The notes: a model not told the origin generated them from the sequence alone. Positions 7,786 through 53,129 are shown, numbered from the stretch's first letter. The stretch is DNA of 64,000 nucleotides from Candidatus Omnitrophota bacterium (GCA_018819285.1 JAHJQM010000010.1:10930-74929); one strand, 5' to 3'. Program-made: numbers and translations.

Positions 7786-7852
7786 TAATTCCTTAGCTAA
7801 TTTACACCCGCTAAAGTTCTTTGACGGGTGTAAATTCAGAGGTGACTATACA
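7786..7852 (+). promoter_or_regulatory. conserved 5' leader cassette L1, copy 1: TTAATTCCTTAGCTAATT + 10-bp-stem hairpin (TTTACACCCG…CGGGTGTAAA) + AAATTCAGAGGTGACTATACA, then TTG start of ackA
   Basis: Seen in sequence. The same flanking motifs recur at 21901-21983 and 52021-52099. Confidence 0.7.
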
Positions 7853-8896
7853 TTGTTAATTCTTGTTTTAAATAGCGGGAGTTCTTCAATAAAATACAAG
7901 CTTTTTGATATTCAAGTTAGTTCGGAAAGGCTTTTGGATAAAGGGCTTTTAGAGAGGATAGGAGAAAAGATCCCTAGCCATAAAGAGGCTATTAATATTA
8001 TATTAGATAAGGCAGGGTCTAAGATAGATGCTGTGGGCCACAGGGTTGTGCATGGAGGCGACAGATTCAAGGAGTCTATTTTAATAGATGATAATGTTAT
8101 AAAAGCGATAGAGGATTTTATTGAACTGGCGCCGCTGCATAATCCGCCAAGCCTATTGACAATAAATGAATCGAGGAAAATACTCTCAAATATTCCCCAT
8201 GTGGCTGTATTTGATACAGCTTTTTATTATGACATGCCTGAGTATGCGTATTTTTATGCGATCCCCTATAAATTTTATGAAAAGTATAAGATTCGTAAAT
8301 ATGGTTTTCATGGAACCAGCCACAGATATGTATCTGAACAGGCAGAGCGTCTTTTAAAGAAGCCTTTAAATGAACTCAAGCTTATTACATGTCACCTTGG
8401 GAATGGGTGCAGCATAACCGCTGTAAAAAACGGCAAGGCAATTGATACAAGCATGGGTTTTACTCCTCTAGAAGGCCTTGTGATGGGCACGCGTTCAGGC
8501 GATCTGGACCCGGCTATCATACCTTATATAATGGAAAAAGAAAATATAGATGTAAATGCAGTTATGGATATTCTAAATAAAAAAAGCGGACTTTTAGGTA
8601 TTTCCGGGTTAAGCAACGACATGCGTGAACTGATGAAAGAAAAAGGCGCAAATAAAAAAGCAAAATTGGCGTTGGATATTTTTATTTACAGGATAAAAAA
8701 ATATATAGGTGCTTATATGGGCGTAATGTCAGGATGCGATGCAGTGATTTTCACAGGGGGCATAGGAGAGAATAACCCAGGCCTTATTGAGGAAATTTGT
8801 AAAGGCGTCGTTTCAAAGGAGACAAAGACCCTGGTGATTCCTACAGACGAAGAATTGATGATTGCCCGGGACACCTATCGCATTGCAGTAAGTTGA
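7853..8896 (+). CDS. ackA: acetate kinase (TTG start)
   Basis: LVLNSGSSSIKYKLF N-terminus and a C-terminal …VIPTDEELMIARDT… motif. TTG start 8 nt after a GAGGTGA Shine-Dalgarno. Confidence 0.85.
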   Translation: MLILVLNSGSSSIKYKLFDIQVSSERLLDKGLLERIGEKIPSHKEAINIILDKAGSKIDAVGHRVVHGGDRFKESILIDDNVIKAIEDFIELAPLHNPPSLLTINESRKILSNIPHVAVFDTAFYYDMPEYAYFYAIPYKFYEKYKIRKYGFHGTSHRYVSEQAERLLKKPLNELKLITCHLGNGCSITAVKNGKAIDTSMGFTPLEGLVMGTRSGDLDPAIIPYIMEKENIDVNAVMDILNKKSGLLGISGLSNDMRELMKEKGANKKAKLALDIFIYRIKKYIGAYMGVMSGCDAVIFTGGIGENNPGLIEEICKGVVSKETKTLVIPTDEELMIARDTYRIAVS

Positions 8897-8924
8897 CACT
8901 CTGACATTGTCAAAGTGTCAACTT
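8890..8924 (+). repeat. REP-like palindromic hairpin element, copy B
   Basis: AAGTTGACACTCTGACATTGTCAAAGTGTCAACTT followed by ATTTTG. Its internal TGA terminates ackA. Confidence 0.9.
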
Positions 8925-8935
8925 ATTTTGAAAAT

Positions 8936-9373
8936 ATGAAAATATATGTCGATAAGATACCAGAAGGCGGACTAGAATTATCCGAAAAGATCCAACCGGA
9001 AGCGCTTTTAATAGATACGGAAGGCATAAATTTTATTAAACCTATAGATGTAAAGGCGGATGTTTCAAAGATTTGCACTGAGATTTTTGTGGATGTTGCG
9101 CTGGAAACGTATGTAGAATACACATGCGGGAAATGCCTTAGCAAATTTGAAGATATTTTTAGAAAAAAGTTTAACATGGTACAGGAGGTCAGGCCTGCGG
9201 AAGTAGTGGAACTGGACGATGAGATAAGACAGGAGATAATACTAGATTGTCCTGTGAAAATTATTTGTAAAGCTGAATGCAAGGGGCTTTGTCCTAATTG
9301 CGGACAGAATCTAAATACAGGGGATTGTGGTTGCGAACATAATGGGCCGATTGAGAATCGGCCTCTACATTAA
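8936..9373 (+). CDS. yceD: YceD/DUF177 family protein (large-subunit rRNA accumulation protein)
   Basis: C-terminal CxxC…CPNCGQNL…CGC cysteine cluster. Conserved position directly upstream of rpmF-plsX. The ATG at 8936 was chosen so the start does not overlap the REP hairpin. Confidence 0.7.
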   Translation: MKIYVDKIPEGGLELSEKIQPEALLIDTEGINFIKPIDVKADVSKICTEIFVDVALETYVEYTCGKCLSKFEDIFRKKFNMVQEVRPAEVVELDDEIRQEIILDCPVKIICKAECKGLCPNCGQNLNTGDCGCEHNGPIENRPLH

Positions 9374-9383
9374 ATCTTGCTTT

Positions 9384-9430
9384 GTCCCGCCCTTTTGGCG
9401 GGCTACTAAGAAGACTCGCCAAAAGGGCGG
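9384..9430 (+). promoter_or_regulatory. GC-rich alternative-hairpin element in the yceD-rpmF spacer (CCCGCCCTTTTGGCGGGC … CGCCAAAAGGGCGGGG)
   Basis: Two 15-nt segments are exact reverse complements. Each can also fold locally, giving mutually exclusive structures. Confidence 0.5.
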
Positions 9431-9457
9431 GGCTTCGCAAAATATGGAGGTTACAAA

Positions 9458-9658
9458 ATGCCTTTACCGAAAAGAAGACATTCAAGTTCAAGACAGGGTA
9501 AAAGAAGAGGTTCTCAGAAAGTCCACGTGCAAAGCATTGCCATGTGTCCTAATTGCAAATCACCCAAATTGCCTCACCGCGTATGCAGCGTATGCGGCTA
9601 TTACAAAGGCAGGCAAGTGATACAGATTAAAGAGAAGAAGAAGAGGGAGAAAAAATAG
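9458..9658 (+). CDS. rpmF: 50S ribosomal protein L32
   Basis: MPLPKRRHSSSRQGKRR…CPNCKSPKLPHRVCSVCGYYKG; 66 aa. Confidence 0.9.
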   Translation: MPLPKRRHSSSRQGKRRGSQKVHVQSIAMCPNCKSPKLPHRVCSVCGYYKGRQVIQIKEKKKREKK

Positions 9659-9705
9659 TTTTTATTTTTGAGTTATCATTTATTGTTGCACAATGAGGGT
9701 TTTAT

Positions 9706-10707
9706 ATGATTAAGATTGCCCTTGATGCCATGGGTTCCGATAATGCCCCGTTTTCAGACGTAGAAGGAGCTGTTTTAGCAGCCCGTGAATTTAATTACGA
9801 GATTACATTGGTGGGGAATCAGGATTCAATAAAAAAAGAGCTCGAAAAATACAAACCCATTCCTTCCAATATATCAATACATCATGCCTCTGAAGTTATT
9901 GGAATGCATGAGCAGCCTGTTTTAAGCGTAAGAAGAAAAAAAGATTCATCTATAGTTAGTCTCTCTAATCTTGCAAAAGAGAAAAAGGTAGATGCAATAG
10001 TAAGCGCTGGCAATACCGGAGCCATGGTATGCGCTGCAACGCTTAAATGCAGGCTTCTTCAGGGCATAGAAAGGGCTGGGATAGGGATTGTTATGCCTAC
10101 TCTTAAAGGCCCTATAGTGATGATAGACGGAGGCGCTAATATAGATGCTAAACCATCTCATCTTTTACAATATGGCATCATGGCCAGCGCTTATTCAGAA
10201 TATATACTTAATAAAAAATCTCCGAGAGTAGGGCTTTTAAATGTAGGCGAAGAAGAATCAAAAGGCACAGGTTTTCTAAAGGAAACTTACAGCCTTCTTG
10301 AGTCTTCAGGGCTTAATTTTATAGGCAATGTAGAAGGCAGGGATTTTTTTGTTGGCGATTGTGATGTAATAGTATGCGATGGGCTTGTGGGCAATGTAGC
10401 TTTAAAGGTTACTGAAGCAGTTGCTCATGCGCTTGGAGAAATGCTTAAGAAAGAATTAAAGAGCAGCTTCTTGTCCGCAGTGGGAGCTCTGCTGGCTAAA
10501 AATGCTTTCATGTCAATGAAGAAAAAAATGGATTACGCTGAGCATGGCGGGGCTCCGCTTCTCGGGGTTAACGGTGTATGTATAATAGGACATGGTTCAT
10601 CGAATCCTAAGGCAATAAAAAACGCTATTCGAGTTGCAGGAGAAGAGGTAGTTAAAAACGTAAATCAGCATATCATAGAAGCGATTGCTATCAGGAAGGA
10701 GCAATAA
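9706..10707 (+). CDS. plsX: phosphate:acyl-ACP acyltransferase PlsX
   Basis: MIKIALDAMGSDNAP… and a full-length PlsX match; 333 aa. Confidence 0.9.
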   Translation: MIKIALDAMGSDNAPFSDVEGAVLAAREFNYEITLVGNQDSIKKELEKYKPIPSNISIHHASEVIGMHEQPVLSVRRKKDSSIVSLSNLAKEKKVDAIVSAGNTGAMVCAATLKCRLLQGIERAGIGIVMPTLKGPIVMIDGGANIDAKPSHLLQYGIMASAYSEYILNKKSPRVGLLNVGEEESKGTGFLKETYSLLESSGLNFIGNVEGRDFFVGDCDVIVCDGLVGNVALKVTEAVAHALGEMLKKELKSSFLSAVGALLAKNAFMSMKKKMDYAEHGGAPLLGVNGVCIIGHGSSNPKAIKNAIRVAGEEVVKNVNQHIIEAIAIRKEQ

Positions 10708-11684
10708 TGGAACAGGCTGGCATACTTGGATTAGGTTGTTATCTACCAGTCATGAAGCTGACAAATAAAGACTTGGAAAAAATGGTTGATACATCAGACG
10801 AATGGATAATGACAAGGACCGGGATTAAAGAAAGAAGGATTGCCCCAAAGGAATTTGCTGCGAGCGATCTGGGAGTGGAGGCTGCCAGAGCTGCCATTAA
10901 AGACGCAGGACTGGTTTCTGAAGACATAGATTTGATTATTGTTACTACAGTAACTGGAGATATGGCATTTCCATCTACCTCATGTATCATACAGGATAAG
11001 ATAGGCGCTTATAACTCAGCCGCATTTGATATAAATGCAGCGTGTTCAGGTTTTATATTCGGGATAATTACTGCGAAACAATTTGTGGATTCAGGACTTT
11101 ATAAAAATGTGCTGGTTATAGGCGCAGAGAAGATGACTAATCTTGTTGACTGGCAAGATCGGTCTACGTGTGTATTGTTCGGAGACGGAGCAGGCGCATG
11201 CGTTATAGGAAAGAGTAAAGATAGACGGATTATCTCTCATTTTATAGGCTGCGATGGTTCAGGCAGTAATCTTTTAAAACTTCCAGCAGGAGGCTCCAGG
11301 ATTCCTACAACAGAAGAGACTGTTAAGGCCAAGCTTCATTTTTTAAAAATGGAAGGCAACGAGATATTTAAGATTGCGGTAAAGGTAATGGCAGATGCTG
11401 CGAATAAGGCAATTACAAAAGCAGGGCTTTTATGCAGCGATATAGATTTACTGATACCTCATCAGGCAAATATAAGGATATTAATGGCTGTTGCAAAAAA
11501 GATGGGCTTGCCGGAAAAAAAGATTTTTCTTAATATAGAAAAATACGGCAATATGTCATCGGCTTCAACAGCTGTTGCGCTGGTAGAGGCAAATAAAGAA
11601 CAGAGGATTAAAAAAGGCGATAATGTCGCGCTTGTTGCATTTGGAGCAGGGTTGACTTACGGAGCAGTAGTCATAAAATGGTAA
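10707..11684 (+). CDS. fabH: 3-oxoacyl-ACP synthase III
   Basis: Active-site AACSGF Cys, C-terminal HQANIRI and GAGLTYG motifs; 325 aa. Confidence 0.9.
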   Translation: MEQAGILGLGCYLPVMKLTNKDLEKMVDTSDEWIMTRTGIKERRIAPKEFAASDLGVEAARAAIKDAGLVSEDIDLIIVTTVTGDMAFPSTSCIIQDKIGAYNSAAFDINAACSGFIFGIITAKQFVDSGLYKNVLVIGAEKMTNLVDWQDRSTCVLFGDGAGACVIGKSKDRRIISHFIGCDGSGSNLLKLPAGGSRIPTTEETVKAKLHFLKMEGNEIFKIAVKVMADAANKAITKAGLLCSDIDLLIPHQANIRILMAVAKKMGLPEKKIFLNIEKYGNMSSASTAVALVEANKEQRIKKGDNVALVAFGAGLTYGAVVIKW

Positions 11685-12613
11685 AAAATATTTGCTTTAT
11701 TTTTCCGGGGCAAGGGTCGCAGTATGTTGGAATGGGAAAAAAACTGTATGATAATTCTCCGGAAGCAAAGGCTATATTTGACCAGGCAGAAAAAATTTTA
11801 CCAGGATTAGATCTGAAGAAGCTCTGTTTTGAAGGCCCGATCGAAGAATTGACACAGACGGCAAATAGTCAAGTTGCGATTTTAACTGCGAGCATAGCTG
11901 CATTACAGGCCTTAGGCTCCGATCTCAAGCCTGTTTTTTGCGCTGGATTAAGCCTGGGAGAATACAGCGCTTTGGTTGCAAGCGGAGTTTTAGAATTTTC
12001 AGATGCTATCCGGCTAGTGAGACGAAGAGGGGAATTAATGGAACAGGCAGCTTTAAATAATCCAGGAACCATGGCGTCTATACTTGGAATTTTCGTAGAA
12101 GATCTGAAAGAAATCTGTAAAAAGACAGACTCTGAGATAGCAAATCTAAATTGTCCGGGACAGATAGTTATATCAGGAAAAAAAGAATCTGTTCAAAAAG
12201 CCATGGCCCTGGCTGAGCAAAAAGGCGCTAAAAAGGCAATTATATTAAATGTAAGCGGGCCTTTTCATTCTTCATTTATGAAAGAAGCTGCAGAGGAGTT
12301 TAAAAAAGAGCTTGGTAAAACAAGATTTTCCAGCCCTAAAGTCTCTATTATAAGCAATGTAACAGCTGATTGTGAAAACAGAGTGGAGTTCATAAAAGAA
12401 AACCTTGTGAAACAATTATACAGCCCTGTGAGATGGGAAGAGTCTATATTGAAAATCAGCCAAGAAGGCTGCGATACGTTTTTTGAGATAGGGCCTGGAA
12501 AGGTGCTAAAAGGGCTTTTGCGTAGAATAAATCCGGAATTAACAGTTTATAATATAGAAACTATAGAAGATATAAAAAACCTTATTTCTATCCCGATCGA
12601 CAAACGGAATTAA
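11678..12613 (+). CDS. fabD: malonyl-CoA:ACP transacylase
   Basis: FPGQGSQYVGMG and GLSLGEYSAL active-site motifs; 311 aa. Confidence 0.9.
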   Translation: MVKNICFIFPGQGSQYVGMGKKLYDNSPEAKAIFDQAEKILPGLDLKKLCFEGPIEELTQTANSQVAILTASIAALQALGSDLKPVFCAGLSLGEYSALVASGVLEFSDAIRLVRRRGELMEQAALNNPGTMASILGIFVEDLKEICKKTDSEIANLNCPGQIVISGKKESVQKAMALAEQKGAKKAIILNVSGPFHSSFMKEAAEEFKKELGKTRFSSPKVSIISNVTADCENRVEFIKENLVKQLYSPVRWEESILKISQEGCDTFFEIGPGKVLKGLLRRINPELTVYNIETIEDIKNLISIPIDKRN

Positions 12614-12626
12614 GAAAGGAATGATT

Positions 12627-13376
12627 ATGTGCGAATTAGTTTTAGAAGGCAAGCTGGCTATTGTAACAGGAGGAGCGAGAGGTATTGGCAAGGAGATAGC
12701 AATGCTCTTTGCAAAACAAGGAGCCAATATCGCCATATGCGATGTAAATCTGGAAGAGGCTGAAAAAACAGCAAAAGAAATACAGGATTCAGGCCGTGAA
12801 AGCCTTGCTTTTAAGGTTGACGTTACTGACCAAAGCCAAATACAGGACATGGTGGATAAAATTCTTGACAAATTCAATAAAATAGATATACTTATTAACA
12901 ATGCTGGCATAACAAAAGACAATCTTCTTCTAAGGATGTCAGAAGAGGAGTGGGATAAGGTAATAGCAGTAAACCTTAAAGGCACTTTTCTATGCACGAA
13001 GATAGTTTCAAAGGTTATGCTCAAGCAGCGTTTTGGCAAGATAGTTAATCTTGCGTCGATCATTGGAATCATGGGCAATGCAGGCCAGGCAAATTACGCA
13101 GCTTCAAAGGCAGGTATAATAGGACTTACAAAAAGCGTGGCAAAAGAACTGGCTTCGCGTAATATATGCGTAAATGCAATAGCCCCAGGATTTATAAAGA
13201 CAGACATGACAGCCAGATTGGCTGAAGAGGTCCAGAAGAAAATGCTTTCCGTGATCCCTCTTGCAAGATTTGGCGAAGCAAAAGATGTGGCGGATTTAGC
13301 AATATTCCTTTCGAGCGAAAGCTCTTCATATATAACAGGCCAGGTGATACAGGTAGATGGCGGAATGGTGATGTGA
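12627..13376 (+). CDS. fabG: 3-oxoacyl-ACP reductase
   Basis: GKLAIVTGGARGIGKE Rossmann motif, NAG and YxxxK (YAASKAG). Start set at the second ATG (12627) for better Shine-Dalgarno spacing; the ORF opens at 12621. Confidence 0.9.
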   Translation: MCELVLEGKLAIVTGGARGIGKEIAMLFAKQGANIAICDVNLEEAEKTAKEIQDSGRESLAFKVDVTDQSQIQDMVDKILDKFNKIDILINNAGITKDNLLLRMSEEEWDKVIAVNLKGTFLCTKIVSKVMLKQRFGKIVNLASIIGIMGNAGQANYAASKAGIIGLTKSVAKELASRNICVNAIAPGFIKTDMTARLAEEVQKKMLSVIPLARFGEAKDVADLAIFLSSESSSYITGQVIQVDGGMVM

Positions 13377-13482
13377 AAATAAAAAGTTAGTTAAAAGTGA
13401 AAGGTGAAAAATTAAAGGTTTTTACCTTATACTTTAAGCTTTATACCTTTAACCAACATTTGTACTTAAGGAGGAATTAAAC

Positions 13483-13722: not shown

Positions 13723-13802
13723 TATTTTGAATACATGGGGTTAGGAGGGGTATTGAATTGGTTTTTAAATCTCTTCTGACCCTTTATTTTTAAGGACTAT
13801 CT

Positions 13803-21728: not shown

Positions 21729-21763
21729 ATGTTACAAAACAAGTCATACTCGTTTTGTAACAT
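21729..21763 (+). repeat. 35-bp palindrome ATGTTACAAAACAAGTCATACTCGTTTTGTAACAT (P3, copy 1)
   Basis: Seen in sequence. 11-bp arms with a conserved 13-nt centre. A second copy lies at 22231-22265. Confidence 0.85.
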
Positions 21764-21777: not shown

Positions 21778-21806
21778 TACTTGACATTTTGCATATCATG
21801 GTATAT
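21778..21806 (+). promoter_or_regulatory. candidate sigma70-type promoter TTGACA-N17-TATACT
   Basis: Seen in sequence (…cctatacTTGACAttttgcatatcatggtaTATACT…). Lies between the P3 palindrome and the MerR-like gene. Confidence 0.4.
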
Positions 21807-21858
21807 ACTTACTCTCTAAATGGAGAGTAAGCTATCGCTGTCTATATGGATAGTTGTA

Positions 21859-21893
21859 AGTTTACACTCTAACATTGTCATGGTGTAAACTTA
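21859..21893 (+). repeat. REP-like palindromic hairpin element, copy C (variant AAGTTTACAC…GTGTAAACTT with compensatory T/A pair)
   Basis: Seen in sequence. The G:C to T:A double change keeps the stem intact. Confidence 0.85.
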
Positions 21894-21900: not shown

Positions 21901-21983
21901 TTAATTCCTTAGCCAATTGCGCGTCAGCTGCTTCACTTTGCGAAGTAAAGTAGCGGGAGAGAAATTCAGAGGTGATTATACAT
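21901..21983 (+). promoter_or_regulatory. 5' leader cassette L1, copy 2 (TTAATTCCTTAGCCAATT … AAATTCAGAGGTGATTATACA + TTG)
   Basis: Seen in sequence. Confidence 0.7.
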
Positions 21984-22222
21984 TGGAAAAGATATATTTG
22001 ATAAAAGACTTAGCAAGATTGAGCGGGCAGACAGTTTACACGCTTAAATATTATCTGAATATCGGGCTTATTAAGGAGGTCGCTAGAAGCCCTGAGACTA
22101 ATTTTAGGTATTTTGATGATACTACATTAGAAAGATTAAAGAGAATCAGGGAATTGCGTAAAGAGAATAAGTCAATAGCAGAGATAAAAGATATTTTGGG
22201 TTTGACCACTTCAATCGCGTAG
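21984..22222 (+). CDS. MerR-family helix-turn-helix transcriptional regulator (DNA-binding domain only, ~79 aa; TTG start)
   Basis: LIKDLARLSGQTVYTLKYYLNIGLI…RYF is a MerR HTH signature. The TTG lies 8 nt after GAGGTGA, as in ackA. The 21917 ORF in the track reads through the leader. Confidence 0.6.
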
Positions 22223-22230
22223 ATTACCTA

Positions 22231-22265
22231 ATGTTACAAAATAAGTCATACTAGTTTTGTAACAT
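22231..22265 (+). repeat. 35-bp palindrome ATGTTACAAAATAAGTCATACTAGTTTTGTAACAT (P3, copy 2)
   Basis: Seen in sequence, between the MerR-like stop and the gspA Shine-Dalgarno, followed by AAGAGGTTTTTTA. Confidence 0.85.
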
Positions 22266-22281
22266 AAGAGGTTTTTTAGAG

Positions 22282-34823: not shown

Positions 34824-34828
34824 CATAT

Positions 34829-34948
34829 AATCTTCGGGAGAGGGTGAAATTCCCCACCGGCGGTACAGTCCGCGAGCTCTCATAAAAGAGGGCAGACTTG
34901 GTGCGATTCCAGGACCGATTGTGAAAGGCTAGATGGTAGAAGATAAGT
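34829..34948 (+). ncRNA. FMN riboswitch (RFN element) aptamer
   Basis: TCTTCGGGAGAGGGTGAAATTCCCCACCGGCGGTA … AGAGGGCAGACTTGGTGCGATTCCAGGACCGATTGTGAAAGGCTAGATGG matches the conserved RFN core; upstream of ribBA. Confidence 0.85.
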
Positions 34949-35041: not shown

Positions 35042-36250
35042 TTGACTGTTATGAAATTCAATACAATACCTGAAATTATTAAGGATCTGAGAAAAGGCAA
35101 GATGGTCATTGTTGTGGATGACGAAGACCGCGAAAACGAGGGAGACCTTGTTATTGCAGCCAGCTTTGCTACGCCTTCAGCGATTAATTTCATAATAAAG
35201 TATGCCAGGGGGCTTGTGTGCATGCCCATGGAAGGCGAAAGGCTCGATGAGCTTGGGCTGCATCCAATGTTTGAGGACAATCAGGATACGTTTAAGACTG
35301 CATGGGCTATCTCTGTGGATGCTAAAAAAAGGACGACTACAGGCATATCCGCTCATGACAGATCAGTTACTGTAAAGGACCTTATAAGCCCTAATACAAA
35401 ACCCGATGATCTTGCAAGGCCTGGCCATGTATTTCCTTTGCGGGCAAAAGATGGCGGAGTTTTAACACGAGCGGGCCATACAGAGGCATGCGTTGATTTA
35501 ATGAAGCTGGCAGGATTGTATCCTGCAGGGGTTATATGCGAGATAATAAATGATGACGGCACCATGGCCAGGCAGAAAGACCTGGCAAGATTTTCAAAAA
35601 AATATAAACTTAAAATATGCACGATTGCCAGTTTAATTAATTACAGGCGGAAATCAGAGAGGCTAGTGACTTGCATTGCCTCCAGCCAAATCCCTACAGA
35701 TTATGGGATTTTTAAATTATATCTTTATGAATCAAGTGTTGATAAATATCAGCATATAGCGCTTGTAAAAGGCGATGTGAAAGGAAAAAGAGATGTTTTA
35801 GTGCGCGTACATTCAGAATGCCTTACAGGCGATATATTTGGCTCTAGAAGATGCGATTGCGGGGAACAGCTTCGTAAGACTATGAAACTTATAGGAGAAA
35901 GACCAAGGGGCGTTCTTTTATATATGAGGCAGGAAGGCCGCGGCATAGGACTGGCGAATAAGATAAAGGCATATACGCTGCAGGATAAAGGCTTTGATAC
36001 AGTAGAGGCAAATGAACAGCTTGGTTTTAAGCCGGATTTGAGGGATTATGGCATAGGCGCTCAAATACTAGCAGACTTGGGATTGAAGACGATACAGCTT
36101 ATTACAAATAATCCGCGCAAGATAGTGGGTTTATCAGGTTATGGACTGGAGGTGGTAAAAAGGGTTCCTATGGAAGTGCAGCCTAATAGCGCTAATAAGA
36201 GGTATCTGGAAACCAAGAAGGAAAAATTAGGACATAAATTGAAATTTTAA
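35042..36250 (+). CDS. ribBA: bifunctional 3,4-dihydroxy-2-butanone-4-phosphate synthase / GTP cyclohydrolase II
   Basis: DHBP synthase N-terminal domain (…DRENEGDL…) plus GTP cyclohydrolase II with the CxxC…C zinc site ([15 protein letters not shown]). The start may instead be the ATG at 35051. Confidence 0.9.
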
Positions 36251-38058: not shown

Positions 38059-39162
38059 ATGAAAAGACATGAATTTTTTATGAGAAAGGTTTTGGATCTG
38101 GCTGAAAAAGGAAAAAGTACTACCAGCCCTAATCCTATGGTAGGCGCGTTGGTCGTAAAGAATGGGAAAATTATAGCAAGCGCTTATCATAGACGGCCAG
38201 GAGGCCTGCACGCAGAGGCTATCGCGCTAAAAAGAATTGGCCAGAAAGCAAGAGGCGCGACGCTTTATGTGAATCTTGAGCCATGCGCCCATTTAGGAAG
38301 AACGCCTCCATGCTCAAAGGCAATTATAAAAAGCGGGATAAAAGAGGTTTATTGCTCAATGATTGACCCAAATCCTTTGAATAATGGAAAAGGCAAAAAG
38401 GAATTAGAGAAAAATGGCGTTAACGTTAGAGTGGGGATTTTAGCTAAAGAAGCAGCAAAGTTAAACGAAGTTTTTATAAAATATGTTACAAAGAAGATGC
38501 CTTTTGTGACAATAAAGGTTGCCGAGTCTCTAGACGGCAAGATAGCTACAAAGACAATGGATTCCAAATGGATTACAGCGGATGAGTCCAGAGATTATTC
38601 GCACAGGCTGCGCAGCGAGATGGATGCTGTGCTTGTGGGCGTGAATACAATAATGAGAGATAACCCTATCCTGACTTCAAGAAAGAATAAATCACCTATA
38701 AAGATTGTGCTAGATTCAAATCTAAGGGTTCCTGAAAGCGCAAAGATTTTTTCAAAGGAATCTCCGGCGCTGAATATAGTGGCAATCCTGAGAAAGTCAT
38801 TAAAGGTCTCGCATATATTAAAAAAAGTGGAGAGATTTAATAAAAAAGGAATTCTCATTATAGCGTGCCCTGGCAAGAATAACAGGATTAACCTGGAATG
38901 GCTTTTAAAAGAGCTGGCAGAACTTGAGATCAGCCGCTTATTAGTAGAAGGCGGAGGAGATACTATAGCAGGATTTTTAGAGCAAGACTTTGTAGATAAG
39001 GCCTTATTTTTCATAGCCCCAAAGATTATAGGCGGCAGAAATGCAGTGACTTCTGTTGAAGGCAGGGGCGTAGAGAAAGTAAGGCAGGCCATAGAACTGA
39101 AAGACATGAAAGTTAAAATGCTTGGCGAAGATATTTTAGTAAGCGGCAGGCCGGTAAGTTGA
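38059..39162 (+). CDS. ribD: bifunctional riboflavin biosynthesis deaminase/reductase RibD
   Basis: CMP/dCMP-type deaminase zinc motif (HAEAIAL … PCAHLGRTPPC) plus a RibD_C reductase domain; 367 aa. Confidence 0.9.
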   Translation: MKRHEFFMRKVLDLAEKGKSTTSPNPMVGALVVKNGKIIASAYHRRPGGLHAEAIALKRIGQKARGATLYVNLEPCAHLGRTPPCSKAIIKSGIKEVYCSMIDPNPLNNGKGKKELEKNGVNVRVGILAKEAAKLNEVFIKYVTKKMPFVTIKVAESLDGKIATKTMDSKWITADESRDYSHRLRSEMDAVLVGVNTIMRDNPILTSRKNKSPIKIVLDSNLRVPESAKIFSKESPALNIVAILRKSLKVSHILKKVERFNKKGILIIACPGKNNRINLEWLLKELAELEISRLLVEGGGDTIAGFLEQDFVDKALFFIAPKIIGGRNAVTSVEGRGVEKVRQAIELKDMKVKMLGEDILVSGRPVS

Positions 39163-39211
39163 CACTCTGACATTGTCAGAGTGTCAACTTACAATGTCAG
39201 AGTGTCAACTT
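39156..39211 (+). repeat. REP-like palindromic hairpin element, copy E, with an extra duplicated half-site (1.5 copies)
   Basis: AAGTTGACACTCTGACATTGTCAGAGTGTCAACTT followed by ACAATGTCAGAGTGTCAACTT. Its internal TGA terminates ribD. Confidence 0.9.
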
Positions 39212-39232
39212 ATATACTAGAGAGAGGAGTTC

Positions 39233-45040: not shown

Positions 45041-45102
45041 CTAACTTTACAAATTGTGCCTGGCACGAATTGTAAAGTTAGAAAGATAGGGAAGGGAGTT
45101 AT

Positions 45103-45597: not shown

Positions 45598-45600
45598 AAA

Positions 45601-46209: not shown

Positions 46210-46221
46210 CTTCTGATCCAT

Positions 46222-47109: not shown

Positions 47110-47139
47110 AAATACACCTCCAGAGGCGGTGAGGTCCAT

Positions 47140-47781
47140 ATGGCTGACATTTTAAAATCTATACGAAGTTATTTTGAGATGGAAAGGGAAAACGGTATAT
47201 CCGAATATCTTTTTTCATCCAAGTCAAAGGATATCCAGCTGTCTTTGGTTAAAAACCAAGTATTGAATTGCCAGAAATGTCCGTTGGGAAAGATGCGGAC
47301 AAATAGCGTATTTGGTTCAGGCAATATAAACGCAAAGCTCGTATTTGTCGGAGAGGCGCCTGGCCGTGACGAAGATATACAAGGCATACCTTTTGTAGGA
47401 GAGGCCGGCATGCTTCTCACAAAAATAATAGAGGCAATGGGCATTAAAAGAGACGATGTTTATATTTGTAATATTTTAAAATGCCGGCCACCACAAAATA
47501 GAAATCCATTGCCAGAAGAAATCTCTATATGCATAGACTATCTTTACGCTCAGATAGATATGATAAAGCCAAAGATAATATGCGGGCTTGGAAAATTTGC
47601 CAGCCAGACCCTTCTCGGAACAGAGGCGCCTATAAGTAAGCTCAGAGGCAACTGGCGCGAATATAGAGGAATAAAATTTATGCCTACATATCATCCCGCA
47701 TATCTTCTGCGTAATCCCGGGGATAAGAAATTGGTATGGGGAGATATGAAAAAGATAATAGAAGCGTTGAAAGACCACTAA
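47140..47781 (+). CDS. uracil-DNA glycosylase, family 4
   Basis: CxxCPL…, GEAPG and PFVGxAG motifs; 213 aa. Confidence 0.8.
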   Translation: MADILKSIRSYFEMERENGISEYLFSSKSKDIQLSLVKNQVLNCQKCPLGKMRTNSVFGSGNINAKLVFVGEAPGRDEDIQGIPFVGEAGMLLTKIIEAMGIKRDDVYICNILKCRPPQNRNPLPEEISICIDYLYAQIDMIKPKIICGLGKFASQTLLGTEAPISKLRGNWREYRGIKFMPTYHPAYLLRNPGDKKLVWGDMKKIIEALKDH

Positions 47782-47788
47782 TGGAGAA

Positions 47789-47834
47789 GACCAGGACTTG
47801 AGCACAGTAATTGCTGTGCTCAAGACCTGGTCTT
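47789..47834 (+). repeat. 20-bp-stem palindrome AGACCAGGACTTGAGCACAG-TAATTG-CTGTGCTCAAGACCTGGTCT (family 2, copy 2)
   Basis: Seen in sequence between udg and priA. Shares its core with 5708-5744. Confidence 0.85.
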
Positions 47835-47842
47835 GTGAAGAG

Positions 47843-49846
47843 ATGTATGCAGATATAGTTATTAACCGGCCCATAGAAAGGCCTTTTACATATTCTATCC
47901 CGGAATCTCTTAAGGAGGATATTAAGATAGGGAGTATAGTAGAGGTGTCTTTTGGAAACAAGGTAGTTACGGGTTATGTGGTAGGGCTTTCTGATGAATG
48001 CGACATAGAAAAAATTAAGCCTATAAATAGTATTTTTGATAAAACCCTGTGTGTAGATTCCAAGATGCTGGAGCTTACAAAATGGATTTCAACGTATTAT
48101 TATTCTTCCTGGGGAGAGTCGATCTCAGCAGCTATTCCCAGCGTTCTTAAAAAAGGCGCCTCCGGGAAAAGACAAAGAAAAGAAAAACACAATGAAGAAG
48201 AAAAGGAGTTTGAATTTATAGACGGCTCTGATAAGCATCTTATGCCCAATGAAGAACAAAAGCTCGCGCTCGATTGCATAACGAATTCAATAGATGCCAG
48301 GATTCACAGGGTTTTTCTTCTGCATGGCGTAACAGGAAGCGGAAAAACAGAGGTTTATCTTCAATCAATAGCCCATGCCTTAGAGCTCGGGCTTTCCAGC
48401 ATAATACTTGTTCCTGAGATTTCGCTTACGCCGCAGACCGTAGCGCGCTTCAAAGCAAGATTCGGGGATAAAATAGCAGTATTGCATTCAAGGCTTCTCG
48501 GGTCCAAGCGTATTTCTGAATGGCATAGAATAAGTTCAGGCGCAGCCCAGATTGTTATAGGGCCGCGCTCAGCTGTATTTGCGCCTCTTAAAAATCTAGG
48601 GCTGATAGTCGTAGACGAGGAACACGAGACATCTTATAAACAGGAGGATGTGCCCAGGTATAACGCAAGGGACGTGGCAATAAAAAGGGCGGAGCTTTCA
48701 AAAGCTATTGTAATACTGGGGAGCGCCACCCCGTCATTAGAATCTTTTTATGCAGCTAAAAATGGAAAATTTACTCTTATAGAACTCCCTGAAAGGATAG
48801 ATTCCAGGCTTTTACCGGCAGTAGATATAGTAGACATGCGGGAGGAGATGACAAGGGCCAAGAAGATCCCTATATTTTCGCAGAAACTTAAAGAATGGAT
48901 AGAGAAGGATATAGCTGAGAAAAAACAGGTCATACTTTTTTTAAATAGGCGCGGCTTCTCAACATTCATAAATTGCAGAAAATGCGGATATGTCATTAAA
49001 TGCAAACGCTGCAGCGTCAGCCTCACGTATCATTTTGATAAGAAAAAACTTGTGTGCCACCATTGTAATTTTAATATGGCTCCTCCTGAAATCTGTCCTG
49101 AATGTAACGCTAGCTATTTAAAATACTGGGGCCTTGGCACAGAAAAGGTTGAAAGCGAAGCCCACAGGCTTTTTCCGCAAGCCTCTATAGCGCGCATGGA
49201 TACTGACGCTACCCACAAGCGCGGCGCGCACAATAAGATACTTTTAAAGTTTAAAGACGCTCATCTGGATATTCTAATAGGCACTCAGATGATAGCCAAA
49301 GGCCTGGATTTTCCAAAGGTTACGCTTGTCGGAGTTATATCAGCTGACACAGCTTTAAATCTTCCTGATTTCAGGTCAGCTGAGCGCACATTTAATTTAT
49401 TGACGCAAGTTGCAGGCCGCGCTGGAAGGGGCGATCTGGGAGGCAGGGTAATAATACAGAGTTATACGCCTGGGCATTATTCAATCCAGGCATCTAAAAA
49501 TCATGATTACAATACGTTTTACGACAAAGAGATATCACTGCGAAAAGAACTATATCTTCCGCCATTCTGCCATATGGTTAGCTTGACCCTTAGGGGCAGA
49601 AAAGAAGAAAGGGTTTTTAAGGCAAGCTATAATTTAAAGTCCAGCCTTGAAAAAGAAACAAAATCTAAAAATATAGAAATCTTAGGGCCTGCGCCTGCTC
49701 CGATTTCAAAGATGAAGGGCATGTACAGGTGGAGCATATTTTTAAGGTCAGAAACCGCAGGAGATATTACATCTATTTTGAAAAAGGCGCTGGATAAGAA
49801 TAAAAACTCAGGAATTATTATAACAGTGGATGTGGACCCGTCTTAA
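47843..49846 (+). CDS. priA: primosomal protein N' (PriA helicase)
   Basis: Walker A GVTGSGKTEVY, DEEH, Cys-rich zinc region (CRKCGY…CKRC…CHHC…CPEC); 668 aa from the ATG at 47843. Confidence 0.9.
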   Translation: MYADIVINRPIERPFTYSIPESLKEDIKIGSIVEVSFGNKVVTGYVVGLSDECDIEKIKPINSIFDKTLCVDSKMLELTKWISTYYYSSWGESISAAIPSVLKKGASGKRQRKEKHNEEEKEFEFIDGSDKHLMPNEEQKLALDCITNSIDARIHRVFLLHGVTGSGKTEVYLQSIAHALELGLSSIILVPEISLTPQTVARFKARFGDKIAVLHSRLLGSKRISEWHRISSGAAQIVIGPRSAVFAPLKNLGLIVVDEEHETSYKQEDVPRYNARDVAIKRAELSKAIVILGSATPSLESFYAAKNGKFTLIELPERIDSRLLPAVDIVDMREEMTRAKKIPIFSQKLKEWIEKDIAEKKQVILFLNRRGFSTFINCRKCGYVIKCKRCSVSLTYHFDKKKLVCHHCNFNMAPPEICPECNASYLKYWGLGTEKVESEAHRLFPQASIARMDTDATHKRGAHNKILLKFKDAHLDILIGTQMIAKGLDFPKVTLVGVISADTALNLPDFRSAERTFNLLTQVAGRAGRGDLGGRVIIQSYTPGHYSIQASKNHDYNTFYDKEISLRKELYLPPFCHMVSLTLRGRKEERVFKASYNLKSSLEKETKSKNIEILGPAPAPISKMKGMYRWSIFLRSETAGDITSILKKALDKNKNSGIIITVDVDPS

Positions 49847-50415
49847 TTTCCGAATTCGCGTTTGAGGGTTCCAAGGGCATCAAGGTTTTTGAAGGATTTC
49901 AGGACTTCTGTGTCGTTAGGGTTTATTTTAAGCGCTGATTCGTAAGTTGCTTTAGCATTGCGATAGTCTTCTTTTTTTACGTATAACTCTCCAAGTTTTT
50001 TAAGCGTGTCTATATCTTTTGGATTCGCCAGTTTCGCCTCTTCCAGATTATTTATTGCGTGGAGCAGCATTCCTTTTTTATAAAATATATCAGCTATATT
50101 TTTTAATGTTTCAAAGTCATTGGGGTTAGAAGCCATTATCTTTTCAAGTAACTCAAGGCATCCTGGCATATTGCCTTTTTTCAACATGCCATTAGCCTGC
50201 ATTGAAAGAAAAAATTTATTTACTGAACTGGCAATAGAAGGTTTAGAACCTTCTGCTTTCTTTTGAAGCGAAAGGTGCAGATAGCGCCTGGCTTCCAGGT
50301 GGTCGTATCGGGCTGATAGTATCTGAGAAAATAGCTCAATGGCGTAATCGTAATTTTGCTTTTCAAATGCCAGAAGCCCTTTATTGTAAAATTCTTTTAA
50401 TTCCTTTTCATCCAT
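49843..50415 (-). CDS. TPR-repeat protein
   Basis: About five TPR-like 34-aa units; 190 aa; convergent with priA. Confidence 0.55.
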   Translation of the reverse strand: MDEKELKEFYNKGLLAFEKQNYDYAIELFSQILSARYDHLEARRYLHLSLQKKAEGSKPSIASSVNKFFLSMQANGMLKKGNMPGCLELLEKIMASNPNDFETLKNIADIFYKKGMLLHAINNLEEAKLANPKDIDTLKKLGELYVKKEDYRNAKATYESALKINPNDTEVLKSFKNLDALGTLKREFGN

Positions 50416-50484
50416 ATGAAACAATTCTACATTAAGGTTATATGATTGTCAAGATGGAAGAGGTATGGTAAAATAAAAAAGCAT

Positions 50485-50991
50485 ATGGCAAAGTTAGAAA
50501 TAAAAATATATCCAGACCCGGCGTTACGGAAGAAAGCCAGGCAGGCAGGAAAAGTAGGCAACGATGAGCGCAAGCTTGCTTATGATATGATAGAGACAAT
50601 GCGCTCTAGCAATGGGGTTGGCCTGGCAGCTCCTCAGGTAGGCATCAGTAAGCGCATTATAGTTGTAGAAGATATGGTTGGAAATAATAAGATAGCCTTA
50701 ACCTTAATTAATCCTAAGATAACCCAGAAAAAAGGAAAGGTAAAGTTTTGCGAAGGCTGTTTGAGTTTACCAGGCGTTTCCAGCGATGTTATAAGGCCTG
50801 AGTTTATTACAGTAGAGGCGCTTAATCTTGACGGAGATATGTTTAAGATAAACGCAGAAGGCCTTCTTGCCAGGATAATACAGCACGAAACAGATCATCT
50901 GGACGGAATACTTTTTGTAGACAAGATAGGATTTTTGAAGCGCAAGAAGATTATCAAGCAGTTTGGCGCGAAGGTCTGTATGGAATTTTAA
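50485..50991 (+). CDS. def: peptide deformylase
   Basis: GVGLAAPQVG, EGCLS and HETDHLDG motifs. ATG at 50485 (MAKLEIKIYPDP…). Confidence 0.85.
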   Translation: MAKLEIKIYPDPALRKKARQAGKVGNDERKLAYDMIETMRSSNGVGLAAPQVGISKRIIVVEDMVGNNKIALTLINPKITQKKGKVKFCEGCLSLPGVSSDVIRPEFITVEALNLDGDMFKINAEGLLARIIQHETDHLDGILFVDKIGFLKRKKIIKQFGAKVCMEF

Positions 50992-50993
50992 AT

Positions 50994-51028
50994 AAGTTGA
51001 CACTCTGACATTGTCAGAGTGTCAACTT
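50994..51028 (+). repeat. REP-like palindromic hairpin element, copy F (consensus)
   Basis: AAGTTGACACTCTGACATTGTCAGAGTGTCAACTT immediately after the def stop. Confidence 0.9.
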
Positions 51029-51053
51029 ATAATACATTAATTCATAGGGGACT

Positions 51054-51992
51054 ATGCATTTGAAAATAATATTTTTCGGCAGCTCAAATTTTGCTGTACC
51101 TATATTAGAGGCACTTGCTAAGAACGAGAATATTGTTCTTGTGATTACGCAGCCAGACAGGCAAAAAGGCAGGTCTCTTAAGATAGCGCCTACAGCGGTA
51201 AAATCAAAAGCCGGAGAACTTAGGATTGAAACGTTTCAGCCTGTAAGAGTAAATTCCAAGGAATCCATAGAATTTCTTAAAAAATTTAATGCGGATTTGT
51301 TTATTGTAGCAAGCTTTGGCCAGATACTTTCGAAATTAGTACTGAGTTTACCAAAATTATATTGCCTGAATATCCATGCCTCGCTTTTACCGAAATATAG
51401 AGGGGCGGCTCCTATAAACTGGGCTATTGCTAATGGAGAAAAAGAGACAGGCGTAACCATTATGCGCATGAATGAAAAAATGGATGAAGGGGATGTTGTT
51501 CTTAAGGAAATATTGCCTGTAAGCGAACAGGATAACGCTGTTACATTATCCGAAAAACTTTCTATAAAAGGCGCAAATATTTTATTGGATACTATAAGGT
51601 TAATAAGAAACAATGAAGTTGAATTTATAGCGCAGGATCATAGTAAGGCAACTTATGCGCCTAAATTAAAAAAAGAAGACGGCCTGATTAACTGGGCTAA
51701 TAGCGCTGATGAAATCTGCAATAGAATCAGGGCTTTTACGCCATGGCCAGGATGTTTTATCTCGCTGGATAAAAAAATACTTAAGATATGGAAGGCAGGG
51801 CCAATTACGGATTTGATTGATAAAAAGTCAATGCCTGGCACAATATTAGGAGTCAGTAAAAATGGCATACTGGTTAAAACAGGGAAAGGGGCTTTAAAAA
51901 TAGAAGAGCTTCAATTAGAAAGTTCGCGAAGAATGACTGCAAAAGAATTTATAGCCGGTCACAAAAATTTTTCTTGCATAAATAATTTTTAA
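51054..51992 (+). CDS. fmt: methionyl-tRNA formyltransferase
   Basis: Formyl-transferase N domain (HASLLPKYRG) plus C-terminal domain; 312 aa; conserved def-fmt gene order. Confidence 0.9.
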   Translation: MHLKIIFFGSSNFAVPILEALAKNENIVLVITQPDRQKGRSLKIAPTAVKSKAGELRIETFQPVRVNSKESIEFLKKFNADLFIVASFGQILSKLVLSLPKLYCLNIHASLLPKYRGAAPINWAIANGEKETGVTIMRMNEKMDEGDVVLKEILPVSEQDNAVTLSEKLSIKGANILLDTIRLIRNNEVEFIAQDHSKATYAPKLKKEDGLINWANSADEICNRIRAFTPWPGCFISLDKKILKIWKAGPITDLIDKKSMPGTILGVSKNGILVKTGKGALKIEELQLESSRRMTAKEFIAGHKNFSCINNF

Positions 51993-52020
51993 TGATATAA
52001 TTCAACCGTTGTATTAACAG

Positions 52021-52099
52021 TGGGAGTATATTAATTCCTTAACCAATTTTGCCCAGCCGCTATGTGAAGCGACTGGCAAAATTCAGTGGTGACTATACA
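52021..52099 (+). promoter_or_regulatory. 5' leader cassette L1, copy 3 (TTAATTCCTTAACCAATT … imperfect hairpin … AAATTCAGTGGTGACTATACAT + ATG)
   Basis: Seen in sequence. Confidence 0.7.
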
Positions 52100-53129
52100 T
52101 ATGCCAGAATTAAGACGAGATCCTGTAATAGGAAGATGGGTTATAATATCTACTGAGAGGGCTAAAAGGCCGAGCGATTTTAACATCAAGCATGCGGATG
52201 AACCAGAAATGGAATGTCCTTTTTGCGAAGGCCATGAAAAAAAGACGCCTACAGAAATATTTGCAATAAGAAAACCAGGCACAAAAAAAGATACCCCAGG
52301 CTGGAACGTGAGGGTTGTGCCCAGCATAGCTCCGAAATTCAAGATAGAAGGGGAACTTGAGAGGCGCGGAGCTGGGATGTATGATGTTATGAATAATATA
52401 GGCGCCCATGAAGTGCTAATAGAGTCCCCTAAGCACCTTACTGATATATATCAATTATCAGAACTTGAAATACAAGATGTAATTAATGCTTCTATCTATC
52501 GCATCAGCGAACTCGAAAAAGACATTCGTTTTAAATATTGCCTTTTATTTAAAAATCACGGATTGAAAGCAGGAGGCAGTAAGAAAACAAAACACCTCAG
52601 GTCTCAGCTTATCGCAACGCCTGTTACGCCTACAAGAGTCAAAGAGGAACTCAGGGGCTCCATGTTTTATTTCGAATATAAAGAAAGGTGTATTTTCTGC
52701 GACATTATACGCCAGGAAATAGAAACAGGCGCAAGGATCATAATGGAGACAAAAACCATTGTGGCAATTGCGCCTTTTGCTTCAAGGTTTCCTTTTGAGA
52801 TATGGATAATGCCTAAAATTCACAGGGCAGATTTTATGAATATACAGGCTGATGAAATAAAAGATCTGGCAAATGTTTTAAAGACAGTATTTGCTAAACT
52901 TTCAAAGATATTGAACGACCCACCATATAATTATATGCTGCATACAGCTCCTTTCAGGCGGACAAGAAGACCTGGATATTGGCATACGATAGAAGAGGAT
53001 TATCATTGGCATATTGAAGTTATGCCAAGGATAACGCAGGTAGCTGGTTTTGAGTGGGGTTCAGGATTTTACATAAATCCTACTCCTCCGGAAGAAGCGG
53101 CAAAGCATTTACGTGAGGTAATTTTATAA
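52100..53129 (+). CDS. galactose-1-phosphate uridylyltransferase-like protein (HIT superfamily); active-site HxHxQ replaced by H-L-R-S-Q
   Basis: RDPVIGRWVIIS N-terminus and CPFCEGHE zinc motif. Paralog of the next gene; the second (nucleophilic) His is Arg. Confidence 0.7.

Follow-up and report, generated by a model that had tools for sequence, protein, structure and literature searches.

The question raised by a stretch of 64,000 nucleotides from a Candidatus Omnitrophota bacterium (GCA_018819285.1, JAHJQM010000010.1:10930-74929; hereafter the window) is why three genes, those for acetate kinase (ackA), a small MerR-like protein and a paralog of galT, should each be preceded by the same modular leader. 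A preliminary description of the window took the leader for a cis-regulatory RNA, or a promoter-plus-operator module, that places the three genes in one regulon, with the MerR-like protein as the candidate binder. The comparisons described here point instead to a leader that is probably a mobile or gene-converted intercistronic ribosome-binding cassette and not a gene-specific regulatory signal. They establish, at the level of sequence, a multi-copy and lineage-restricted cassette that has, repeatedly and in recent times, entered short gaps between co-directional genes and replaced the native spacer and start codon. The cassette carries stop codons, a palindrome, a strong Shine-Dalgarno (SD) sequence and a start codon at fixed spacing. 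All coordinates are positions in the 64-kb window, and labels of the form L0xx refer to related or cassette-bearing contigs and loci.

The shared leader in the window

Motif searches of the window returned exactly three matches to the 5' block of the leader and exactly three to its 3' block, all on the + strand, where ~0.09 and 0, respectively, are expected by chance (Table 1). When the three regions are aligned, conservation starts abruptly at (T)TAATTCC and ends at the start codon, and the unit reads, in order, (T)TAATTCCTTARCYAATT, a variable hairpin segment based on AATT(T):(A)AATT, AAATTCAGWGGTGAYTATACA(T) and the start codon. The 5' block is CTAATTCCTTAGCTAATT in the ackA copy and TTAATTCCTTAACCAATT in the galT copy. 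It is the conserved AATT(T):(A)AATT that closes the hairpin, so that the stem shares bases with both blocks. In the ackA copy the stem is perfect, as first described, and comprises 12 rather than 10 bp, with 4 additional inner pairs; the galT copy has 9+2+4 pairs, and in the MerR copy the lower stem has decayed and the upper stem is intact (7+4 bp). The pta stop codon (TAG, 7780-7782) lies 2 nt upstream of the ackA copy; some 10 nt before the galT copy there is an SD-like GGGAG that may once have served as the native SD. A fourth copy, at the start of fmt, is a short form with three mismatches to the 21-mer of the 3' block, a match that occurs in the window only.

Much of the preliminary description survives at this level. 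A single modular leader does precede the three genes, with both blocks present three times, far above chance, and with outer blocks that are conserved around a middle that varies yet folds in all copies. The leader ends in a real SD and start codon and lies within transcripts, either in an intercistronic gap or in a 5' untranslated region (UTR). The starts are TTG for ackA (7853) and the MerR-like gene (21983) and ATG for the galT-like gene (52101), as proposed; the proposed spacing of 8 nt after GGTGA is correct for the ATG copy and is 7 nt in both TTG copies. Automatic calls of open reading frames (ORFs) do overrun the leader, in the ORFs that begin at 21917 and 52086, and the public gene call for the galT-like gene starts at ATG 52101 and specifies 342 aa. 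The downstream products match the Pfam families Acetate_kinase, MerR_1 (79 aa) and GalP_UDP_transf/HIT-type, respectively. The ackA product (347 aa) aligns to positions 57-346 of the 392-position Acetate_kinase profile, and this short form is the norm in more than 100 Omnitrophota homologues and not a truncation.

Filled and empty junctions in relatives

Syntenic loci were fetched by protein identity, so that the sample of junctions is unbiased with regard to the motif. At the pta/ackA junction the cassette is absent in eight relatives with AckA proteins that are 73-95% identical to that of the window. The gap measures 0-10 nt in relatives other than L046, L048 and L050 (e.g., ...GGTTTAAATGATAATTCTT in L051 and TAAAAACTACAAAATGTTAATTCTT in L049), and the window reads TAGAAC, then the cassette, then TTGTTAATTCTT. 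A covariance model (CM) of the cassette gives no match in the 133 kb of syntenic DNA that seven of these relatives contribute. At the MerR site, L007, L015 and L036 have a cassette and L044 and L034 do not; the fmt/galT junction is empty in L052 and L053, which have GalT-like proteins 92% and 82% identical, respectively, to that of the window. The short form at def/fmt is also absent from L052 and L053, where a native ATG AAG ATA follows a different upstream sequence; in the window it replaces the native GGAAATAGGATGAT-ATG and has its cassette TTG at the position of the native ATG of the relatives. Conversely, some junctions that lack a cassette in the window or in another locus have one elsewhere. 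L020 carries a cassette at coaD/pta, where the window and seven others have none; L011 carries one at the xerD-like site, which is empty in the window; and L023 carries one at the panC site, where L006 has none. The existence of these junctions without a cassette in close relatives indicates that the window copies are recent insertions. Several junctions keep the cassette across lineages with flanking proteins that have diverged by 10-20%.

At all six junctions that can be aligned (ackA, MerR, pta, xerD-like, panC and fmt), the TTG or CTG of the cassette stands exactly at the native ATG or GTG and the gene is native from codon 2 onward. The native spacer and start codon are replaced, not duplicated.

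The pta/ackA gap is also a hot spot for unrelated insertions in relatives, which include a 133-nt long inverted repeat rich in AACCAA/TTGGTT in L046, an 80-nt GTAAC-rich spacer in L048 and a 39-nt spacer in L050. A 66-nt tandem direct repeat, each unit of which has a CCCCCCTTCTTTCATTC...GAATGAAGGGGGG hairpin, lies upstream of a phosphoesterase-like gene in L003; in L031 a short-form cassette precedes the same gene instead.

Distribution of the cassette family and its downstream genes

Collections of species-representative genomes, metagenomes and viruses were scanned with a gapped pattern that required both blocks. The species-representative genomes yielded five stretches in two metagenome-assembled genomes (MAGs), four of them in Ca. 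Omnitrophica bacterium CG1_02_40_15, and the metagenome collection yielded 36 stretches from groundwater and sediment samples; no cassette copy was found with this pattern in the viral collection. The CM, which was built from 21 short-hairpin copies, identifies 46 full-length copies at E<1e-6 in the collected sequences, and a census by relaxed regular expression agrees with it. The cassettes are ~57-90 bp long and all are single, with no tandem arrays. Short forms that consist of the 3' block alone number only two (at fmt in the window and near 4781 in L031), and no frame without a hairpin, i.e., a 5' block fused to a 3' block, occurs in the collected DNA. Thus far the family appears restricted to a subset of the Omnitrophota, and the AckA and GalT-like homologues of the window are all labelled Omnitrophota. 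The window itself belongs to a 79-kb metagenome contig in ENA (k141_624214 of ERZ27247117). One cassette resides on a 4.3-kb contig (L005, JACROO010000087.1) from a MAG labelled Nitrospirae, which may reflect either a wider host range or a binning error. If the three copies in 64 kb are extrapolated to genomes of 0.86-3.2 Mb, the size range of Omnitrophota (PMC10066038), we arrive at an estimate of 50-150 copies per genome.

The cassette matches no Rfam family. A scan of the window against Rfam at the gathering threshold returned only an FMN riboswitch and a tRNA-Pro, and an Rfam E-value scan of seven cassette-bearing loci gave nothing near threshold on the cassette. A literature search found no account of such an element in Omnitrophota.

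The genes downstream of the cassettes belong, by Pfam, to ~27 unrelated housekeeping families with no functional theme. They encode ribosomal proteins L16 (rplP, with the cassette between rpsC and rplP in the S10 operon), L23 (rplW) and L11 (rplK); the cofactor and lipid synthesis proteins NadA, NadE, PanC and AccC; MurA, MurI and FtsA of the cell wall and division; TruB, RecR and a XerD-like recombinase; and Pta, subunits of pyruvate:ferredoxin oxidoreductase (POR), a HIT protein and a sugar transferase, along with AckA and the GalT-like protein. MerR, a PilZ protein and an AAA_26/DRTGG protein complete the list.

The MerR-like gene and the regulon idea

This diversity bears directly on the proposal that the cassette is a cis-regulatory RNA or operator that unites ackA, the galT-like gene and the MerR-like gene in one regulon. 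The proposal draws on the presence of one element before three genes in a single 64-kb window, on the DNA-binding protein that one of the three encodes, and on a precedent in Neisseria, where REP2 repeats precede 14 co-regulated genes (PMC3184786). It does not sit well with ~27 unrelated downstream families that include ribosomal proteins inside the S10 operon, nor with the close relatives in which the same three junctions lack the cassette and the same genes and MerR-like regulator are kept. The ~6 reverse-oriented copies described below also speak against it. Operators of the MerR family are palindromic, unlike the conserved blocks of the cassette.

As for a promoter-plus-operator module, no sigma-70-like promoter on the sense strand (-35/-10 with 16-18 nt spacing) and no intrinsic terminator was detected inside any of the three window copies, the stems of which are flanked by U on the 5' side and A on the 3' side, the reverse of the arrangement in a terminator. 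Outside the cassette, the MerR-like gene has a promoter-like site of its own, with the palindrome TACTCTCTAAATGGAGAGTA directly 3' of it (Table 1). Orthologues retain this palindrome both where they carry the cassette (L007, L015) and where they lack it (L034, L044), which makes it a likelier MerR operator than the cassette, and we regard it as a candidate autoregulatory operator of the MerR-like gene. Given a promoter and a conserved palindrome that are independent of the cassette, the idea of the MerR-like protein as cassette binder is not supported, and we consider the three-gene regulon very improbable. The preliminary description had set against its own proposal the case of a repeated or mobile fragment in no consistent position relative to start codons; the cassette is indeed repeated and recently inserted, yet it keeps a highly consistent place with respect to start codons. 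Two further palindromes bracket the MerR-like gene (Table 1).

Start codons, stop codons and orientation

The family can be written as a non-palindromic frame, (T)NAATTCCTTARCCAATTT ... AAATTCAGNGGTGA-CWATRCAT-(N)TG, that encloses an interchangeable, near-perfect palindrome. In nearly all forward copies the start lies at +7 (TTG), at +8 (ATG or TTG) or at +2/+3 (ATGCAT) after GGTGA, the last variant being CTATGCAT-CTG, which reads M-H-L. Of 36 cassette junctions, ~16 use TTG as the start, as compared to 5 of 98 public gene calls on the same and related contigs, an enrichment which argues that the start codon belongs to the cassette. At the other end, the upstream gene terminates within the 5' block in at least 19 copies, with TAA at block positions 2-4 or TAG/TAA at positions 10-12, the latter giving upstream proteins that end in ...LIP; the stop is otherwise mostly within 3 nt of the 5' block in operon-internal copies. 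With a stop in or near the 5' block and a start at the 3' end, the cassette usually fills the entire intercistronic gap. A minority of copies, e.g., those of the MerR and galT genes, lie in a 5' UTR behind a promoter.

In ~6 junction groups (L008/L025, L016, L019, L031/L003, L039 and L043) the cassette is reversed relative to both flanking genes. In these copies an AAGGA (within TAAGGA) from the complement of the 5' block, AAAUUGGCUAAGGAAUU (also given as UAAGGAAU), stands 4-13 nt ahead of the native ATG, and the TAG that ends the upstream gene comes from the complement of the 3' block. By this geometry the cassette has outward-facing SD sequences and stop codons at both ends, and either orientation would be tolerated. 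Forward junction groups outnumber reverse ones by ~27 to 6 (two-sided binomial p about 3e-4).

At the junction before the DRTGG gene, the cassette TTG opens a 4-codon mini-ORF (TTG GAG AAR AAA TAA) ahead of the real ATG in L014, L028 and L009, with the TTG mutated to TCG in L009. In L030 there is no mini-ORF and the cassette abuts the ATG directly. The mini-ORF may represent an "unprocessed" state of insertion.

Hairpin cores and free-standing palindromes

All 41 distinct middle segments fold to a single hairpin closed by AAUU:AAUU, with predicted energies of -12 to -34 kcal/mol. In an alignment of 21 sequences, 94% of the cells are paired as compared to 78% in shuffled sequences and at most 46% when the partner is slid, and double-sided changes affect 51 cells, a number that none of 500 shuffles reached (15 in shuffles). 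The stems contain 605 Watson-Crick pairs, 6 G.U, 8 A.C and 4 others (i.e., ~97% Watson-Crick) and no bulges, and loops or inner parts are found in both orientations. These sequence data prove that a palindrome is maintained; they do not demonstrate selection specifically on an RNA fold.

The palindromes fall into at least eight unrelated core types. Recurring types are common to non-orthologous junctions, and orthologous junctions often have different types. At the MerR junction the window and L007 have one type (B) and L015 and L036 another (A), and the window and L015 share an identical upstream flank, GTGTAAACTTATATAAGA, despite their different cores. At the DRTGG junction, types E (L014) and G (L028) stand with the same mini-ORF and a third type (H) occurs in L030. 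The cores are not confined to cassettes, an idea that we rejected when we found them free-standing elsewhere. A perfect 39-nt palindrome, ATAAGTTGACACTCTGACA-T-TGTCAGAGTGTCAACTTAT, has five free-standing copies in the window, located on or just past the stop codon of the upstream gene in co-directional gaps; it is also free in L020 and L051 and is nested in the cassette hairpins of L013, L005 and L023. Likewise, the free-standing CTAACTTTACAAAT... at 45041 is the core of the L028 cassette hairpin. Since the cores are swapped between copies and also stand free, the unit is best described as a conserved frame with a nested, exchangeable palindrome, and the exchange has likely proceeded by gene conversion through the conserved blocks.

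Two other readings may be considered. The cassette might be primarily an RNA-processing or stability element, such as an RNase III-type site or an exonuclease barrier that segments polycistronic mRNA, with the SD secondary; phage T7 intercistronic sites, REP of E. coli and the Correia elements of Neisseria would be the parallels. Stems of 13-25 bp that are ~97% Watson-Crick, a strictly intercistronic location within operons, and the habit of the same genomes of placing free palindromes at stop codons and hairpins directly 5' of the SD in other leaders are all in keeping with this possibility, which leaves unexplained the conserved non-palindromic blocks, the built-in start codon and the fixed SD-start spacing. 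We consider it unlikely as the primary account, although it is compatible with a ribosome-binding cassette and does not exclude one. Alternatively, the cassette might be a purely selfish or neutral repeat, with a palindrome that is maintained at the DNA level, with an SD and start that merely permit its survival, and with no benefit to the host. In favor of such a repeat are the recent and patchy insertions, the lack of any G.U over A.C bias, the loop inversions and the outward-facing SDs on both strands, as well as a CWATNCAT end that is kept in reverse copies, where it has no role as an SD spacer. The strong orientation bias, the retention of several junctions across diverged lineages and the apparent improvement of starts after insertion (ATA to ATG, or TTG to ATG) are less easily reconciled with neutrality, and we view this alternative, too, as a minority possibility.

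Table 1. Coordinates of the cassette copies and of other features in the window and in related loci
Feature	Coordinates	Strand	Description
Cassette copy 1	7785-7855	+	Fills the pta/ackA gap; 5' block 7785-7802; hairpin 7799-7836; 3' block 7832-7852; TTG of ackA 7853-7855; CM match 74 bits
Cassette copy 2	21901-21985	+	5' UTR of MerR-like gene; 5' block 21901-21918; hairpin 21915-21966; 3' block 21962-21982; TTG 21983-21985; CM match 48.5 bits
Cassette copy 3	52031-52103	+	Precedes first galT/HIT-like gene; 5' block 52031-52048; hairpin 52045-52083; 3' block 52079-52100 (motif match 52079-52099); ATG 52101-52103; CM match 71.8 bits
Cassette copy 4, short form	51037-51062	+	3' block only (TTAATTCATAGGGGACTATGCATTTG); gives fmt start, ATG 51054, then CAT TTG
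39-nt palindrome, free-standing	3587-3625, 8889-8925, 39154-39212, 50992-51030, 57217-57255		Degenerate copy at 21857-21893
Other intercistronic palindrome families	5707-5745, 47787-47834, 45041-45081, 21729-21763, 22228-22268		..CTGTGCTCAAGACC.., CTAACTTTACAAATTGTGCC.., ATGTTACAAAA..; the last two coordinates bracket the MerR-like gene
Promoter of MerR-like gene	21781-21809	+	Outside the cassette; sigma-70-like TTGACA-17-TATACT, 11/12 match
Palindrome TACTCTCTAAATGGAGAGTA	21810-21829		Directly 3' of the MerR-like gene promoter
ackA	7853-8896		347 aa
FMN riboswitch	34826-34948		RF00050, 100 bits; upstream of ORF 35042-36250
Small-hairpin leader, window	54245-54281		Before gap
Small-hairpin leader, L009	12930-12970		Before rpsU-like gene
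Small-hairpin leader, L006	6545-6580	-	
pta/ackA insertion, L046	9868-10000		133-nt long inverted repeat
pta/ackA insertion, L048	9921-10000		80-nt spacer
pta/ackA insertion, L050	5059-5097		39-nt spacer
Tandem direct repeat, L003	6400-6520	-	66-nt repeat
DRTGG mini-ORF, L014	about 440-400	-	
DRTGG mini-ORF, L028	4473-4530		
DRTGG mini-ORF, L009	11476-11500		TTG mutated to TCG

A proposed mechanism and the points that weigh on it

In the interpretation that we favor, that of a mobile or gene-converted ribosome-binding cassette, stops in two frames of the 5' block would often terminate the upstream gene, the palindrome would fold in the mRNA to a hairpin of 13-25 bp, and the 3' block would match the anti-SD over 5-7 nt (GAGGUGA) and present, 7-8 nt further on, a TTG or ATG from which the downstream gene would be translated. 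The corresponding junctions of relatives are tight stop-start arrangements, e.g., TAAATG or overlapping ATGA, with no visible SD, and we infer from the comparison that coupled junctions would become independently initiated ones upon insertion. The start may subsequently have been improved by either of two routes, in one of which ATA becomes ATG (ATGCAT) and the TTG then drifts to the synonymous CTG, and in the other of which TTG becomes ATG. More speculatively, the hairpin might insulate the ribosome-binding site (RBS) from upstream sequence and ribosomes, or stabilize the flanking mRNA segments. Hairpins directly 5' of an SD are also found in other leaders of the same genomes, such as those of gap and an rpsU-like gene. 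This other design has a small hairpin, AAATTTGC-NNNN-GCAAATTT, that abuts GGAGG, with a larger GC-rich hairpin 5' of it (Table 1).

A different role for the hairpin would be that of a translational riboregulator or thermosensor, in which the anti-SD-like UUCCUUA of the 5' block pairs with the GAGG of the SD across the hairpin base until temperature, a protein or a small RNA (sRNA) opens it. The 5' block is indeed the complement of an SD, and the partition function gives the CCUU:GAGG pairing a probability of ~0.2, with the SD on average 40% unpaired. The pairing, however, is only 4 bp long with one G.U among them, and is broken in copies with CAGCGG or CAGTGG, and by inspection the variable R (in TTARCC) and N (in CAGNGG) do not covary as a pair; the 5'-block sequence is explained more simply as the outward SD of reverse copies. 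With pairing that is weak and not conserved, we rate an SD-sequestering switch of this kind as quite unlikely.

Several observations count against the ribosome-binding cassette as we describe it. No mobilizing enzyme was found. Target-site duplications of AT, TA, CAT, AATTC and TAATTC were tried and none fits all six filled/empty pairs; CAT, with which the cassette ends, also stands before the 5' block in ~16 of 40 copies, and TAATTC is present on both sides of the ackA copy. Terminal inverted repeats are absent, in that the 5' block TTAATTCCTTAGCC is not complementary to TGTATAGTCACCTCTG, the reverse complement of the 3' block, and only the internal stem is inverted. With no mobilizing enzyme, terminal inverted repeats or consistent duplication, the word "mobile" derives from the filled/empty comparisons alone. 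The exact replacement of codon 1 at six of six junctions is hard to explain, as it fits poorly with ordinary transposition followed by selection. The pattern that retrieved most of the copies needed both blocks, so that the conservation of the blocks is in part built in and more diverged members of the family would have escaped notice. As for function, there is no excess of G.U over A.C pairs (6 versus 8), which makes the test for selection on a sense-strand RNA uninformative; the SD is predicted to be only moderately accessible (mean P(unpaired) 0.40), the 5' block and downstream sequence being weak competitors for pairing; and we infer the use of the cassette SD from geometry alone.

A more ambitious version, which the exactness of the junctions suggests and which we put forward only tentatively as the less probable form, is that of a self-propagating "portable gene junction" with a dedicated mechanism that targets the stop-to-start boundary, with outward RBSs on both strands and with a center at which a second layer of mobile palindromes docks. 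If true, this would be a mobile element that has the translation-initiation site as its niche and that rewires operons from coupled to independent translation in a streamlined and uncultivated phylum.

Significance

For annotation, ORF callers overrun the starts of genes behind the cassette, which are a TTG or the ATG in ATGCAT, and upstream proteins may end in residues that are encoded by the cassette, e.g., ...LIP followed by the stop. For the Omnitrophota, it appears that a repeat can exchange the entire RBS of essential genes, those for ribosomal proteins among them, in the time that 95%-identical proteins have taken to diverge, and that tightly coupled stop-start junctions can be turned into SD-driven ones. 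The in-frame replacement of starts at independent junctions, together with the modular exchange of cores, goes beyond the standard models for miniature inverted-repeat transposable elements (MITEs), repetitive extragenic palindromes (REPs) and mycobacterial interspersed repetitive units (MIRUs). If a specific mechanism exists, it would be a new one; otherwise the family is a clean natural example of the "hairpin plus RBS" insulators of synthetic biology.

Comparison with known systems

Distant analogies can be drawn with several systems. The intercistronic RNase III sites of phage T7, and synthetic insulators such as RiboJ and bicistronic designs, place an intercistronic hairpin before a standardized RBS and make downstream translation independent of context. 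The analogy is functional only; the cassette is a natural, multi-copy and recently spreading chromosomal element. The attC sites of integrons also have conserved ends around a palindromic center of variable length and sequence, and lie between successive ORFs in one orientation. By inspection, however, the cassette consensus has neither of the core sites of attC, R'' (RYYYAAC) or R' (GTTRRRY), and its stem base is AATTT:AAATT; attC has extrahelical bases where the cassette has perfect stems, and the cassette is flanked by syntenic housekeeping genes rather than gene cassettes. No intI lies nearby in the window.

REP elements carry GTAG on the 5' side and are partnered by a RAYT; Correia and ERIC elements have terminal inverted repeats with TA duplications. 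Assignment to the REP/RAYT system was rejected on the variable palindrome, with its eight or more core types, and on the lack of GTAG; no RAYT gene (an IS200/IS605-like Y1 transposase) was noticed in the annotated parts of the window. Assignment to the MITEs was rejected on terminal inverted repeats, which the cassette lacks. Correia (NEMIS) elements are reportedly cut by RNase III, according to work by De Gregorio et al. in 2002-2003. As transcribed intergenic palindromes, the REP/BIME, ERIC and Correia elements are functional analogues of the cassette, but it is the palindrome itself that they conserve, whereas in the cassette the palindrome varies, the non-palindromic flanks are conserved and the end is a start codon. 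REPs are transcribed extragenic palindromes with an effect on mRNA stability (PMC3184786).

Closer parallels exist among the repeats that overlap genes at their ends. MIRUs are 40-100 bp long, are present in roughly 40-50 copies per genome, are intercistronic in polycistronic operons with ends that overlap the flanking stop and start codons, and have filled and empty sites (PMC3184786). The cassette resembles them in its intercistronic location, in the upstream stop within its 5' block (in at least 19 copies) and in the start at its 3' end; unlike MIRUs, which occur in tandem arrays, its copies are single and have a hairpin and a strong SD. MIRUs are said, in work by Supply from 1997, to contain small ORFs that couple translation. 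No ORF runs across the cassette, the 5' block of which contains no start codon, and the sole mini-ORF, that of the DRTGG junction, lies after the cassette.

REP2 (CREN) of Neisseria and the plasmid IR of Borrelia are interspersed repeats without terminal inverted repeats that have internal stem-loops, lie upstream of many ORFs and carry an RBS and initiation codon (Delihas 2011, PMC3184786). The cassette likewise adjoins ORFs on their 5' side and carries an RBS and start codon. These repeats have a promoter and two fixed stem-loops, whereas the cassette has no promoter and one stem-loop of interchangeable sequence; the genes of REP2 are co-regulated, whereas those of the cassette have no common theme and the cassette itself is mostly operon-internal, between a stop and a start, with outward SDs on both strands. 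Because the features that define MITE, REP, attC, MIRU and REP2 were each looked for and not found in full, the cassette stands outside any named family. The best reading is that it belongs with the interspersed intergenic repeats that supply expression signals, among which Neisseria REP2 and the mycobacterial MIRU are its closest counterparts.

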